Below are positions 2,709-20,889 of a stretch of DNA of 28,809 nucleotides, piece after piece. Below the pieces are notes generated by a model. It did not search any database and had not been told where the DNA came from. It worked only from the letters and a program-made list of their open reading frames with translations. The first letter of the stretch is position 1, and every line of letters starts with the position of its first letter. Location of the stretch: NCBI GenBank assembly GCA_042217695.1, contig JBDGSE010000009.1:1-28809 (forward strand), written 5' to 3'. The translations under genes were made by a program, and so were the position numbers. Source of the DNA: Candidatus Nanohaloarchaea archaeon. GTDB taxonomy: Archaea; Nanohalarchaeota; Nanosalinia; Nanosalinales; Nanosalinaceae.

Positions 2709-5558
2709 CTAGTCCATCACTATCGCTGGCCGTCCAGGTTCTGCGCGTGAGGCTTTTTCCTCATCGCTTTCCGATTCTGACTCGATCTTCACCCAGGCGT
2801 TGAACTCTTCCTCAAGGAAGTTGTGGTTCTCCTTCAGCATCTCTTCTTCCTCATCTCCCTCGAGAACTTCGGGGAGTTCTCCCGGGTCCTCCAGGTACTT
2901 CTGGAGGAGGTCCTTTATCATCTCGGCATGTTCCTCCCGGCCTTCCACGAGTCTGTCCATGGCTTCCCCGAATTCAGGTCTTTCCTCGACCACTTCTGAT
3001 AGTTCCTGGAAGAGTTCTCGTTTCCAGTCATCCGCGAGGATGATCTTTATCTCCTCGTAGTCGCCGACGATATCCTCGAGTTCCCGTATATCGTCTATGG
3101 TGTTGTCTACCACGCTGTAGGCGCGCTCTATCTCTTCGTCCCGGAGTTCTCCGTCTGCCTCAGGCCATTCGGCCTCCGCAACGAATCCTTCTCCCCCGAG
3201 CTTGTCCCAGAGTTCTTCGCAGACGTGCGGGGTAAAGGGCGCCATCATCTTCACCTGTGTCTCCACGAGCGCGTTCACCACGTCGGAGTTTAACTTCTCT
3301 GAACGCCGCCGGTACTTGTTTATCAGCGAGTTCAGCTCGAAGAACGCGTTCAGTCCTGCCTTGCGGGTCTGGAACTCTTCAAGGCCTTCGGTAGTCTCCG
3401 TTATGATCTTCTGTAAACGGGAGAGGGTGTACCGGTCGAAGGTGTTCGGCTCGCGTTTTTCTCCTCTGTCGTGGAGTTCAAGTGAACGCTCGTAGAACCT
3501 CTTTATCTTTTCCCGGTACTGCTTCACCTGGTCGCCGCGCCAGTCCCAGTCCTGCCATGGTTCCCTGGACGCGAATATGAAGAACCGGGTGGTGTCGGCG
3601 CCGTACTCCTTGATGGCCTCATCCGGGAGCTTGACGTGCCCCTTTGATGAGGACATCTTCTTTCCTTCAAGGAGCCCCATACCCCATGTGGCTATCCCCT
3701 GGGGCCATTTCGATTCATCGAACAGCGCGGTGTGGTGGAACACCATGAATGTAAGGTGGTTCTGTATCAGGTCGAACGCGGAGGTTCTCCAGTCAAGCGG
3801 GTACCAGTACTCGAAGCTTTCACGGGCCTCTTCGACTGTTTCCAGGGAGATCCCTGTGGATTCGGCGACTTCTTCAGCGCTCCCTTTACCGTTGAATACG
3901 TGGTCGAAGAACACTGGCTCGAGTTTCTCCGGGTCGACGTCCTCTATTATGTGGCGGATGGTGTAGAACGCCATGTAGATAGTGGAGTCCGAAAGCGGCT
4001 CCACGATGAACTCGTCGTCGAACGGCATCTCTGTTCCGAGCCCGAAGTTCCTTATAGCGGGCCAGGACTCCAGCCAGTCGACGGTATGGTTGTAGTCCTC
4101 TCTTTTCTCCGGCGGTATGATGTCCATCCTGTCAAGGTTTTTCTGGGCTCTGTCCTTCCATCCGGGGTCGCCGTACTCGAGGAACCAGGAGTCCTGCATC
4201 GAGACGATGACCTTTCCGCCGCATCGACAGACGACCTCTTCTGAAAAGTCGTACATCGAGCTGAAAACGCCCTCTTCCTCGAAGCTCTCTATCAGCGAGT
4301 CCTTGATGGCGTTGACCTTCTGGCCGGCGAACTCTCCGCAGGACGCGTTCATGGTTCCAGTGTGGAACTCTTTCTCGTAGATATCTTCCGTGGCTTTCTC
4401 GAGCGCTTCCTCGTCTTCCTGTGAATCCACGCCGTACTCTTCGCAGGCCTCTTTCGCGGGAACGCTACCGTAACCTTCGACGTTGATTATGGTTTTCGGT
4501 TCGATGTTCTTCACTTCCCGAGGCTTTATTCCGTACTCCTGGAGCATCTCCTCGTCCTCCTGGATGTCTTTCAGCGAGATCCAGTCGTAGGGTGCGTGAG
4601 CGGGGACCGACATCACCACTCCTGAACCAGAGTCCGGGTCGACGAAATCGGCGGGCAGTATTATGATGTGTTCTCCAGTGACAGGGTTTCTAACTTTCTG
4701 GCCTATGAACTCTTCTCCCGTGGCCTCTCCAACTACCCGGACGTCTTTGCCCTGGTGCTCAAGTTTCTCGGCGGCTTCATCGCTCACCACCCATCTCTCG
4801 TCCTCGATCTCCGCGATGACGTATTCTGCTTCCGGATTGATCAGCATATGCGTTACCCCGAACACGGTCTCTGGCCTCAACGTGGCGGTCGGGAAAACGT
4901 ACTCCTCACCTTCAAATTTTACCAGGGAGTAATCCTGTTTCTCTGCGTCCTCGCCTTCAAGCAGGTCGTGGGTGGTAACCGGGTTCTCGTCGTTGAGGCA
5001 GTATTTTGTCGGATGCTTACCCTTCTTAACGAGACCCTTGTCCCGGAGCCGCTTGTACTGCCACTCTATGAAACGGTTGTACTGCGAATCGTTCGTCGTG
5101 AACTCGCGCCTCCAGTCCACTGAGAATCCCAGCTTCTTCATGTTCGGCTTGTAGCTGTTCTCGATAAAGTACTCTGCGAAATCCATAGGTTCCTCCCAGG
5201 AGTCCATCGTCTCCTCGGGAACGTTGTAGACATCTCTCAAGACCTGTATCTGGTCCTCGTCTCCTTCCTTTACGCGGTTCAATGCGCCGATTATCGGGGT
5301 TCCGGTGACGTGCCAGGCCATCGGGAACAGGACGTTGTAACCCTGCATCCTCTTGAAACGTGCGAAAACATCCGGTAGCGTGTATGTTCCGACGTGTCCC
5401 AGGTGCATACCCCCGCTGGGATACGGGTAGGCAACGGTGATGTAGAACTTGTTTTCATCGTTCGGGTCCACCTGGAAGAGTTCTTCCTCCTCCCACCGGG
5501 ACTGCCATTTTTGTTCGATATCGTTCATCCTGGAGACAAAGTCTTCGTCTTCAGCCAT
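2709..5558 (-). CDS. leuS: Leucine--tRNA ligase (archaeal type)
   Basis: [12 protein letters not shown] (HIGH), ATLRPET and [15 protein letters not shown] (CP1 editing domain), KMSSS (KMSKS variant), C-terminal AEPGRPAI. Start placed at ATG 5558 behind SD GAGGTG (5570-5565). Confidence 0.97.
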
Positions 5559-5605
5559 GGAAAACACCTCTGGAAGTTAATTTAATACGGTTAACTCTCG
5601 TAGAA

Positions 5606-5653
5606 CTAGAGCGACAGGTGCAGAACAGATCCACCCTTGATTCCTTCGGTCAT
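5606..5653 (-). CDS. Putative leader peptide (uORF) MTEGIKGGSVLHLSL upstream of leuS
   Basis: ATG ACC GAA GGA ATC AAG GGT GGA TCT GTT CTG CAC CTG TCG CTC TAG; 3 of the last 5 sense codons are Leu; BRE/TATA-like GCAAACTTAAAAG ends 19 nt upstream; stop lies 47 nt before the leuS ATG. Confidence 0.5.
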   Translation of the reverse strand: MTEGIKGGSVLHLSL

Positions 5654-5672
5654 ATAGTTTAATTGGTTCCTA

Positions 5673-5680
5673 CTTTTAAG
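5673..5680. promoter_or_regulatory. TATA-like element between divergent leuS leader and trmY
   Basis: CTTTTAAG is 21 nt before the trmY ATG; its reverse complement CTTAAAAG is 19 nt before the uORF ATG. Confidence 0.55.
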
Positions 5681-5701
5681 TTTGCACAGGTAGACTGAGG
5701 T

Positions 5702-6256
5702 ATGAAGACGTTCATCGTCCTGGGGCACGACGCGCCGGTGACACCTTTCTCGCTCGACAACCTGGCCGGCGAAGGCCGAATGGATCTGCTTTCAAGGTGT
5801 GTGAACGCCGCTTTCCTGAAATCGCACGGTATAAGGAAGGACACACGGCTTTTCCTGGTGCTCGACGATTATATCACGCTGAGGTTTGAGGGTTCCGAGC
5901 TCGGTGGTATTAACCCGGACGAGCGTTCGATAGCCGCTCTTATCTCAAAGGCGTTGAACCAGCATTACGAATCCGAGCAAAAGATATCCAACGGTTTCTA
6001 CTCCTCAATAAAAAGTTTTGGAGAGCTGCTCGATGGTTTTGACCGTGTGATAACGCTCCACGAGGATGGTGAAGACATCCAGGGTGCCGAAATCCCTGAC
6101 GAACCTGTCTTCGTTCTGTCCGACAACAGGGACTTTACCGCCGCGGAGAAGGAACTGCTTGAAGACTCGAGGAGTGTTTCGCTGGGGCCCGAAGTATTGC
6201 ACACCGATCACTCGATAACGGTGGCTCAGAACTTTCTTGACCGCGGTATGAAGTAA
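5702..6256 (+). CDS. trmY: tRNA (pseudouridine54-N1)-methyltransferase (SPOUT)
   Basis: GRMDLLSRCVNAAFLKSHGIRKD, PDERS, LHEDGEDI, FVLSD and SLGPEVLH motifs. Confidence 0.93.
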   Translation: MKTFIVLGHDAPVTPFSLDNLAGEGRMDLLSRCVNAAFLKSHGIRKDTRLFLVLDDYITLRFEGSELGGINPDERSIAALISKALNQHYESEQKISNGFYSSIKSFGELLDGFDRVITLHEDGEDIQGAEIPDEPVFVLSDNRDFTAAEKELLEDSRSVSLGPEVLHTDHSITVAQNFLDRGMK

Positions 6257-6287: not shown

Positions 6288-7055
6288 ATGACCCGGCTAA
6301 TCTGTGTAAGTAGTGGAAAGGGAGGGGTCGGAAAAACCACCGTGACCGCAAACCTTGGAGCGGCTTTAACCCAGTTCGGTGCTGACACCGTTGTTCTCGA
6401 TGCAAACCTTACTAACCCGAACCTGGGATTCCATATCGGTATACCGCTCTACCCAAAGACCCTGCATGATGTGCTGAAGGGCGAGGCCCACATCACGGAA
6501 GCGATGTACATACACGACTCGGGGCTTCGCGTGGTACCGGCCGGGCTCTCGGTCGAGGACCTGAAGGATACCTCGCCGGAAAACCTCTCCGATGTTTTAC
6601 TCGACGCAGTGGGGGAACCCGACTTCGTTCTGGTCGACTCCGCCGCCGGACTTGGAAAAGAATCCGTCAACGCCATAGAGGCCTCGGACGAGGTTCTCGT
6701 GGTAACGAACCCGAACCTTCCTGCTGTAACTGATGCACTGAAGACTGTGAATATCGCCGAGGACGCAGGGACCGATGTCGCTGGCGTCGTGCTGAACATG
6801 GTGAAGGGCCATGACGCAGAACTGGACACGGACGAGGTCGAATCTATGATCGGCCATCCTGTGCTGATGGAGGTCCCCCACCACGAGAAAGTTGAGGAGG
6901 CTCTATCCGTCAAGAAACCGGTGGTTCACCATGCGCCCGACCACCACGTCTCTGAAAGGTTCAAGGCGGTCGCGGGAGAACTGGCGGGAGTCGACTACGA
7001 GCCGGATTTGAGCCAGCAAAACTTTATCTCGCGGATTCTCGACCGGTTCAGATAG
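6288..7055 (+). CDS. minD: MinD-family ATPase (paralog 1)
   Basis: Deviant Walker A GKGGVGKTT, TLHDVL, LVDSAAG, LVVTNP, GVVLN; C-terminal amphipathic FISRILDRFR; TATA TTTAAAAG at 6257-6264. Confidence 0.9.
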   Translation: MTRLICVSSGKGGVGKTTVTANLGAALTQFGADTVVLDANLTNPNLGFHIGIPLYPKTLHDVLKGEAHITEAMYIHDSGLRVVPAGLSVEDLKDTSPENLSDVLLDAVGEPDFVLVDSAAGLGKESVNAIEASDEVLVVTNPNLPAVTDALKTVNIAEDAGTDVAGVVLNMVKGHDAELDTDEVESMIGHPVLMEVPHHEKVEEALSVKKPVVHHAPDHHVSERFKAVAGELAGVDYEPDLSQQNFISRILDRFR

Positions 7056-7091
7056 ACAGGTTTTTAATTAAAGGTCCACAATTTTCAGGTG

Positions 7092-7853
7092 ATGACCCGA
7101 GTCATATCTGTCATTTCCGGCAAGGGAGGCGTCGGCAAGACCACTATAACAGCGAATATCGCCGTTTCGCTGGCCCGACAGGACCAGGACGTTCTCATAA
7201 TCGATGGAAACTTCTCTGGAGCCAACCTGGCCCAGCATTTCGGTATAGGGTTCTCCGACGTAACGCTTAACGATGTCCTTGACGGGGACGCCTACATAAC
7301 CCAGGCCGTTGCCAAGCACCCGGAAGGCGTGTCGGTTATTCCCGCCTCCGTGCTGGAGTTCTCCGCCAACGCCCAGAACCTGAAGCATTCGATAGTTGAC
7401 TTCCTTGGAGACAAGGACTTCGTGTTTATCGATGCTGCCGCGGGTATAGGAGACGAGGTAGAGGCCGCTATCGAGGCCTCCGACGAGGTTTTACTGGTCT
7501 CGGAGCCTGAACTACCGTCGCTGACAAACTGTCTGGGCGCCAAGAAACTCGCGGACCAGTTGAACCGCGACGTTCTAGGGCTGGTGGTCAACGGCGTGAG
7601 AGGAGAGCGTTCAGAGGTCTCGATGGACGATATCGAAGACCTCGTGGAGACAGACATCCTCGGGACCGTCCCGGACCATAAACATGTCAGAGAGTCCATC
7701 GCCCTTAGAGAACCGGTGGTTTCTTACAAGCCCGACTCCCGGGCGTCGATCGCTATAGAGGATATAGCGCACCGTTTGAGAGGAGAGGAACCACCCGAGC
7801 GCGGATTCGCGCAGAGACTGAAGACCGGGTTCCAGGAACTGAACCCTTTCTGA
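7092..7853 (+). CDS. minD: MinD-family ATPase (paralog 2)
   Basis: GKGGVGKTT, TLNDVL, FIDAAAG, GLVVN; C-terminal GFAQRLKTGF; clear paralog of the upstream gene. ATG 7092 (GTG 7089 is an alternative). Confidence 0.88.
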   Translation: MTRVISVISGKGGVGKTTITANIAVSLARQDQDVLIIDGNFSGANLAQHFGIGFSDVTLNDVLDGDAYITQAVAKHPEGVSVIPASVLEFSANAQNLKHSIVDFLGDKDFVFIDAAAGIGDEVEAAIEASDEVLLVSEPELPSLTNCLGAKKLADQLNRDVLGLVVNGVRGERSEVSMDDIEDLVETDILGTVPDHKHVRESIALREPVVSYKPDSRASIAIEDIAHRLRGEEPPERGFAQRLKTGFQELNPF

Positions 7854-20445: not shown

Positions 20446-20526
20446 AAGGAGGTTTTCGTACGTCTGTTTAGAAAACTACTGCCTCAGACCGAAGGAATAA
20501 GAGAGTGGTGTTTGTGATTAAAGAAC

Positions 20527-20889
20527 ATGAGAGAAGTAGAGAGTCGCGGCGAGTGGCTTGAATGGGCCTCTGAAAGACTTGGGGAGCTAGAGTATTACGA
20601 CCGTGAGCTCCCGAGGATGGATGTGCTCGAAGAAGAGGGGTTCCTCGCGTTCGCTTCCGGACTAGATATCAGTTCGACCCAGGAAATCCGGAAAATCTTG
20701 AAGGGTGAGGCGAGATGGGAGAACCGGGAGGAAAACGAAGCCGAGGCAGTCTTCATAGTTTACGACTTACCTATAGACTATAGTCAGGCCATGGATGAAT
20801 ACATCGAGGAAAGAGGTCGAAAGCCGGTTGTTTCAGTCCCCGCGCAAATAGTGGATGAGGAACTTGTCTCGCAGTACCGCGGTCTTTAA
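20527..20889 (+). CDS. Hypothetical acidic protein (120 aa)
   Basis: Fills the gap between two minus-strand genes; acidic composition; 4-bp convergent overlap with GH57. Confidence 0.75.
   Translation: MREVESRGEWLEWASERLGELEYYDRELPRMDVLEEEGFLAFASGLDISSTQEIRKILKGEARWENREENEAEAVFIVYDLPIDYSQAMDEYIEERGRKPVVSVPAQIVDEELVSQYRGL

Follow-up and report, generated by a model that had tools for sequence, protein, structure and literature searches.

The closest described relatives of the element reported here come from bacteria and from Haloferax. In bacterial prfB, the autoregulated gene of release factor 2, a short zero-frame open reading frame (ORF) contains a Shine-Dalgarno (SD)-like stimulator 5′ of a NUU shift codon and a slow A-site codon, and a shift leads into a useful +1 frame (PMC5009743). 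Leader-peptide attenuators such as leuL, pheM and trpL, together with the predicted Streptomyces leuS attenuator and the LEU element (PMC1262725), sense the charged cognate tRNA through a translated leader. At ermCL, a ketolide-induced frameshift in the leader carries ribosomes into the spacer and allows initiation at the downstream ermC, and the frameshifting at pheL has been judged incidental (PMC5009743). In Haloferax, termination-reinitiation is strict at overlapping gene pairs, and the SD sequence does not serve de novo initiation (PMC6728339). For archaea, a 2021 review names one programmed frameshift in a cellular gene, and its direction is −1 (PMC8211752); a 2016 review of frameshifting knows of no starvation-specific trans-frame products of hungry-codon frameshifting (PMC5009743). 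Little is established about how archaea adjust their synthetases to the supply of amino acids. Here we describe a 15-codon upstream ORF (uORF) that precedes the leucyl-tRNA synthetase gene leuS in a stretch of 28,809 nucleotides (nt), the window, from contig JBDGSE010000009.1 of a Candidatus Nanohaloarchaea archaeon (assembly GCA_042217695.1). The source genome (757 kb, 83% complete) is the sole member of its genus.

Comparison of related genomes makes it highly probable that this uORF is one copy of a nanohaloarchaeal cassette that acts as a +1 frameshift sensor of charged tRNA-Leu and couples its own translation into leuS. With slightly less assurance, we propose that a whole nanohaloarchaeal amino-acid regulon relies on programmed +1 frameshifting at hungry codons. 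Its portable 18-nt cassette would be reprogrammed by a single codon and would turn on synthetase and biosynthetic genes by bringing starved ribosomes to their starts, some of its proteins would be made trans-frame only, and its leucine version would have been recruited to leuS in at least two genera.

The leuS leader and the proposed mechanism

The uORF contains an in-frame ATG, the core AAGGGUGG, a GUU followed by CUG, an early frame-0 stop and an open +1 frame, and an SD sequence stands before leuS. The features of the sensor and of the gene behind it are as follows.

5606..5653, minus strand: uORF in frame 0, 15 codons, MTEGIKGGSVLHLSL and a stop; ends 50 nt before the leuS start
5631..5638, minus strand: SD-like core AAGGGUGG, conserved; predicted partner of the 16S anti-SD during elongation, spaced 4-5 nt upstream of the shift codon
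5624..5626, minus strand: GUU, predicted P-site shift codon, re-pairing at +1 on UUC
5621..5623, minus strand: CUG, sole leucine sensor codon, predicted A-site "hungry" codon; a cognate codon stands here in 74 of 74 annotated copies
5551..5625, minus strand: +1 frame, 24 codons open; its stop TGA (5553-5551) overlaps leuS codons 2-3
5565..5570, minus strand: SD GAGGUG, at the modal position of operon-internal genes
2709..5558, minus strand: leuS, archaeal-type leucyl-tRNA synthetase (TIGR00395, 1061 bits), the gene presumed to be regulated

Codons 6-11 of the uORF (AAG GGT GGA TCT GTT CTG) match the conserved cassette far beyond chance. Counting from the A of the leuS ATG, the +1 stop starts 5 nt further on, and a tRNA-Leu(CAG) is present in the genome. 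The SD before leuS, predicted to aid reinitiation, is uncommon in this position: an SD 5-mer precedes 4 of 61 leuS genes, and both cassette-bearing leuS genes are among these four.

We propose that the mRNA would start leaderless at the uORF ATG. When leucine is plentiful, the ribosome would read CUG, stop 50 nt short of leuS and leave; this early frame-0 termination may also expose the U-rich leader RNA to transcription termination. When Leu-tRNA is scarce, the A site would stand empty at the first Leu codon, and pairing of GGGUG with the 16S tail would hold and push the paused ribosome until the peptidyl-tRNA-Val slips from GUU to UUC. The shifted ribosome would read 23 more codons, terminate on the leuS start and reinitiate, so that LeuRS would rise when charging of tRNA-Leu falls. 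This scheme is modelled on prfB and on the strict termination-reinitiation of Haloferax.

Recurrence of the cassette and the cognate codon rule

The 12-mer of the cassette gave 18 matches in 13 of 70 related genomes (control, 2), and a looser pattern, AAGGGTGGNYVYKTT, gave 165 matches in 51 of the 70 (control, 10). Of 138 distinct matches that were fetched, 123 have an in-frame ATG within 60 nt. Downstream proteins were clustered, and one representative of each cluster was named with NCBIfam or Pfam. The scored set (n = 74) consists of 71 of the fetched matches plus three further copies from the source genome. One CysRS copy (row 15) could not be anchored and was left out; it carries a Cys codon, with an ATGA overlap 334 nt on.

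The codon after (T/G)TT is cognate for the downstream synthetase or biosynthesis gene in all 74 copies. These comprise 65 synthetase genes of 11 kinds (Val 17, Ser 14, Gly 12, Thr 11, Leu 2, Cys 2, Phe 2, Trp 2, and Pro, His and Tyr) and 9 biosynthetic genes (trpB 4, ilvA 3, leuA and proC). In the source genome the agreement is six of six (thrS-ACA, glyS-GGA, serS-TCC, tyrS-TAT, hisS-CAC and leuS-CTG), and two further copies there, with a Trp codon, precede a GNAT gene. Copies outside the scored set that fit the rule carry Trp before a TrpD-type gene and His before a HisG gene. A scan of other synthetases for cognate codons had been suggested by a sequence-only reading of the window; its central claim, a translated leucine-sensing leader that controls leuS, is most likely right.

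The second leuS copy belongs to another genus (G016, loci L044/L085), where MSPGNSIKGGHVLR and a stop lie at −96 before leuS and share AATCAAGGGTGGA..TGTTCT with the uORF described here. Our initial reading, a chance ORF in a divergent promoter gap, was overturned by this shared cassette. Short ATG ORFs as such are ordinary: they occur in 59 of 171 gaps of the source genome and in 30 of 61 leuS upstream regions, all 61 of which come from the same class.

An exact search for ATGAAGGGTGGACGYTTT in 185,579 genomes returned 32 loci, 22 archaeal and 10 scattered among bacteria. Seventeen of the archaeal loci are titled nanohaloarchaeal and 5 uncultured archaeon. None of the 10 bacterial loci shows the architecture before a recognised synthetase, and none of the 32 is titled Halobacteria, although variants of this one exact pattern may escape. 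Viral contigs gave 96 matches; among the 80 examined were 7 short ORFs, none convincing.

Tandem cassettes also occur (L091, L141, L196, L169 and G000:C8), with an Ile cassette followed by a Leu cassette in one uORF, or a Trp cassette by a second one. They often precede unknown or GNAT-like genes, and a two-input or amplifying logic is possible. Between sensor and start, AAAACC occurs in 34 of 74 leaders, and the words (T/C)TCAAAAC, AGTTCT and TTTCT are frequent.

The SD-like core and the shift codon

The first Gly codon of the cassette is nearly always GGT (165 matches, vs 14 for the synonymous forms). A constraint on the peptide only was considered and rejected, as the synonymous Gly1 codons are not enriched (14 matches vs about 70 in the control, with 2 of the 14 real copies). 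GGT is thus fixed at the nucleotide level, which points to a constraint on the RNA. The anti-SD GAUCACCUCC is present in the 16S of five of five relatives (the source assembly lacks the 16S end), and its duplex with the GGGUG core is predicted at −7.3 kcal/mol. The sequence-only reading had cast GGGUG as an alternative partner of CACCU; it is instead the conserved SD-like core of the cassette.

The codon before the sensor follows a rule. The counts are GTT+C 35, GTT+T 9, GTT+A 0, TTT+A/G/T 95 and TTT+C 1 (Fisher p 2e-23, with row 70, which lies inside a HerA gene, excluded). GTT therefore stands before 35 of the 36 sensors with an initial C, and TTT before 95 of 104 others. Such a rule would follow if the P-site tRNA had to re-pair one base further along. 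By slipping, tRNA-Phe on UUU-C would gain a pair, and for tRNA-Val on GUU-A/G the loss would be too great. The slips retained would then be those that are neutral or of small cost, and these require a long pause. When the shift codon is left unconstrained, TTT or GTT is found in 86 of 121 MKGG matches, CCC/CCT in 6 and GAT in 2. CTT is used by four thrS copies of genus g23.

Reading frames and downstream starts

Gene starts were set from conserved N-terminal anchors, independently of the stops. Frame 0 reaches the gene in none of the 74 copies. For 64 of the 74 (62 of the 65 synthetases) the +1 stop falls at −20..+15 nt relative to the gene start, 23 times as an exact ATGA/GTGA overlap, and a −1 stop falls there in 7. 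Stops beyond the ATG come from coding sequence, and the informative part is the open leader; dinucleotide shuffles predict 19.8 open +1 frames among 74. A −1 frameshift was rejected, since the −1 frame closes early. The +1 frame of the G016 leuS copy ends in ATGA. At tyrS of the source genome the first base of the +1 stop lies 12 nt upstream of the ATG. The +1 frame at hisS codes for an AbrB/MazE-type domain and terminates in an ATGA overlap; the in-frame ATG of this overlap is 17 codons upstream of the most probable conserved start.

AbrB/MazE-type, GNAT, HisG and TrpD-type domains lie in the +1 frame of cassettes, and their first 40 codons include no start codon. The AbrB/MazE-type DNA-binding domain follows a His sensor in five genomes (L424:191-511, L170, L177, L180 and L110), mostly without a usable start codon, and is a candidate for a histidine-controlled trans-frame regulator. 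GNAT after Trp, HisG after His and TrpD-type after Trp start directly in the +1 frame of the cassette (L426 = G000:C8, L193, L192 and L129; the absence of a start was checked for the last three).

Promoters and transcript starts

The source genome has haloarchaeal-style promoters. In 259 divergent genes (own gene calls), the positions of TATA-like hexamers relative to the ATG have their maximum at −29, SD 5-mers precede 24 of these 259 vs 69 of 187 operon-internal genes, and the TATA, B recognition element (BRE) and WW motifs agree with those reported for Haloferax (PMC4983044). Among the cassette uORFs, a TATA stands at leaderless distance from the frame-0 ATG in 48 of 71 and from the GTG of the motif in 2 of 71; the distances peak at −29, with 7 matches at −26. 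The genes behind the cassette are mostly without a promoter of their own (median matrix score 1.8 vs 4.8; TATA-like at −33..−25 in 21 of 74). The elements of the leuS/trmY gap and the divergent neighbour are as follows.

5673..5680, either strand: TATA-like box; TTAAAA from −26 of the uORF ATG on the minus strand and TTTTAA from −29 of the trmY ATG on the plus strand
5574..5592, minus strand: retained leuS proximal promoter; AA at −34/−33, TATTAA at −29..−24, 10/13 identity to ATTGAAATAAGTT
5702..6256, plus strand: trmY (PRK02135), divergent neighbour, outside the sensor

The box at 5673..5680 is possibly shared between the uORF and trmY (matrix score 4.2, 44th percentile, on the minus strand; 3.3, 31st percentile, on the plus strand). 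On the uORF side this TATA is 3 nt nearer to the ATG than the mode. The proximal leuS promoter scores 8.4 (97th percentile). In 40 of 61 leuS genes a motif that matches ATTGAAATAAGTT at 10/13 or better lies about 31 nt before the ATG, as in a leaderless-type promoter, and the copy in the source genome (10/13) is at −28. The separate leuS promoter that the sequence-only reading had allowed for thus stands, and since leuS has its own promoter, the leader probably adds to a basal level of expression.

The leuS promoter motif, A(A/G)ATT(G/A)AAATAA(G/C)TT (5574-5592), is a pseudo-palindrome of unusually high conservation. In the two genomes with a cassette-bearing leuS the motif departs from this pattern, standing 3 nt out of place in the source genome and being absent in G016. 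It may resemble Lrp/AsnC operators. In 23 of the 61 leuS genes (L043-L055, L071-L080) the N-terminal part is less than 58% identical to this LeuRS. These loci mostly keep the neighbour minD, the promoter motif and the first residues, and the one tested, L085, scores as a bacterial-type leuS; the pattern suggests that the synthetase body was replaced in place.

Evidence against the frameshift and alternative explanations

Several points weigh against a frameshift sensor at leuS. We infer the frameshift and every mechanistic step. The GUU to UUC slip loses the first-position pair, hisS of the source genome has GAU at the shift codon, which is poor at re-pairing, and TCT before the shift codon is rare (2 of 141). 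The SD spacing of 4-5 nt differs from the 3 nt of prfB (PMC5009743). Ten of the 74 +1 frames end more than 20 nt short of the start, and the open +1 frame at leuS, taken alone, has a shuffle probability of 0.29. The gene retains its 97th-percentile promoter, and the uORF TATA is off-mode and at the modal distance from trmY. The cassette is found at 2 of 61 leuS loci, with none within 500 nt of the other 59. Of the 138 fetched matches, 66 precede other or unclassed genes or none, and their cognacy was left unscored. Copies in related genomes are not independent, yet they fall into 15 gene families, each with its own codon.

The same cassette and sensor could operate with no frameshift if a released ribosome reinitiated at the GUG of the motif, or if stalling blocked premature termination in a U-rich leader. 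A GTG that could start the +1 ORF is present in its frame in nearly every copy, 45 of 74 leaders have U-tracts beyond the frame-0 stop, and some +1 frames end far from the next gene. We nevertheless regard this explanation as unlikely. Forms with ATG in place of GTG gave 52 matches, fewer than the control, and the architecture in none of the 41 examined; two intact copies have no GTG (L243, with GGC, before thrS and with an ATGA overlap, and L248, with GGG); and the TATA boxes follow the frame-0 ATG (48/71) and not the GTG (2/71). The shift-codon rule is explained by neither variant, and stalling alone leaves the positions of the +1 stops unexplained. It is somewhat less likely still that the cassette is decayed or idle at this locus, with leuS expressed as a leaderless transcript of the gene's own promoter at −29 and trmY served by the upstream TATA. 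All of the parts are intact (in-frame ATG, core, GTT+C rule, cognate codon, overlapping +1 stop and SD), the same arrangement stands before the bacterial-type leuS of a second genus with an ATGA overlap, and TCT GTT is also seen before a His codon (row 103). The case for an idle cassette comes from the strength and modal place of the proximal promoter, its homology to the motif of 40 of 61 leuS loci, the rare TCT codon and the 59 of 61 leuS genes that do without a cassette.

The sequence-only reading had proposed that a ribosome stalled on three Leu codons masks CACCU and frees the leuS SD. On re-reading the sequence, its letters and coordinates were borne out. The Leu codons are numbers 11, 13 and 15 of the uORF (CTG 5623-5621, CTG 5617-5615 and CTC 5611-5609), the complementary 5-mers exist (CACCT 5620-5616, GGGTG 5636-5632 and AGGTG 5569-5565), the 7-bp inverted repeat spans 5597-5574, and leuS and trmY were correctly named. 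SD masking also has a precedent in the mycobacterial polycysteine short ORFs and a parallel in the LEU element, and the mycobacterial case requires a stable duplex and consecutive cognate codons (10.1101/834739). For leuS this model is very improbable. The predicted probability of the CACCU:SD pairing is 0.001, an anti-SD 5-mer is found in just 24 of 74 leaders, and the only other leuS copy has a single Leu and no CACCU. Nor is the hairpin predicted (probability about 0.06; −1.8 kcal/mol alone). Its 3′ arm belongs to the ancestral leuS promoter motif, with which the inverted repeat overlaps, and the fold of the leader is no more stable than that of shuffled sequences (z +1.1). A cluster of three Leu among the final five codons is indeed unique to this uORF among 171 gaps of the genome (any residue three times, 5 of 171), and it is not conserved, being found in 1 of 61 leuS regions when the suggested check of relatives was made. 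The sensor is instead the first Leu codon alone, and 55 of the 74 copies have no further cognate codon. Nor is the 143-nt gap, described as long for the window, unusual in length, since 41 of 144 divergent gaps in this genome are at least that length.

Comparison with described systems

The frameshift cassette shares with prfB an internal SD-like stimulator 5′ of the shift codon and a P-site codon able to re-pair in +1 (with exceptions such as GAT), and CUU, the shift codon of prfB (PMC5009743), is the one used by the four g23 thrS copies. It differs in being archaeal, in having as its sensor a sense codon for the cognate amino acid where prfB uses UGA, and in being reused for at least 11 synthetases. 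Its +1 frame mostly delivers the ribosome to a separate start and does not encode the product; at leuS it is a 24-codon linker. As with leader-peptide attenuators, a raised output of synthetase and biosynthesis genes is predicted, and the leaderless start is shared with the mycobacterial polycysteine short ORFs (10.1101/834739). Unlike in classical attenuators, the sensor is one cognate codon and not a run of them (the Leu codons at leuS are not adjacent), and the output is an apparent change of frame; the leuS leader has 0 terminator-like sites and no terminator/antiterminator or SD-sequestering duplex. The trigger at ermCL is an antibiotic, which acts by RNA unfolding and not by a stop placed on the next start (PMC5009743), and a purpose for the shift is proposed here, unlike at pheL. 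The ATGA-type overlaps and the SD before the downstream start resemble Haloferax gene pairs (PMC6728339), and at leuS the upstream stop overlaps the downstream start. The coupling in those pairs is constitutive, whereas the upstream frame of the cassette would be reached only by the predicted shift.

RF03001 (leuA-Halobacteria) is also an archaeal cis-element named for a leucine gene. Its consensus lacks the AAGGGUGG core, its 9 weak matches in the source genome include none over the cut-off and none at leuS, and the leuA copy of the cassette (L126) gives no match. The main text of PMC5737381 is silent on leuA, and its supplement may bear on earlier archaeal leucine-leader proposals. Rfam gave no match at the leuS locus or at six other copies of the cassette. 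We take AAUCAAGGGUGGA, found before synthetase genes, to resemble the T-box sequence; unlike in a T-box, there is no stem I or antiterminator, and the cognate codon lies 6 nt 3′ of the motif, in frame with the ATG. The system would thus work like prfB, a leader-peptide sensor and a coupled gene pair in one, and it is a full member of neither prfB, the attenuators, the T-boxes nor RF03001. A search of the openly accessible literature found no description of such a system. If the frameshift sensor is correct, hungry-codon frameshifting would here be put to productive use, archaea would have a +1 shift stimulated by an SD sequence, and host-dependent DPANN cells would sense amino acids at the level of translation. 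The sensor would also correct the annotation of start-less genes and offer an amino-acid sensor that is programmable by one codon.

Neighbouring sequences

Among 24 other genomes of the family that were searched, one (G022) has trmY, likewise divergent to leuS, and a metagenome scan for close relatives of the trmY-leuS pair returned one locus at 43% identity. At 20487-20498 on the plus strand, 12 bases are identical to the 5′ end of the uORF (GACCGAAGGAAT), before a 120-residue ORF at 20527 and without the GGTGG core. Two tandem archaeal minD paralogues follow trmY at 6288-7853, and ftsZ lies at 65-1177.

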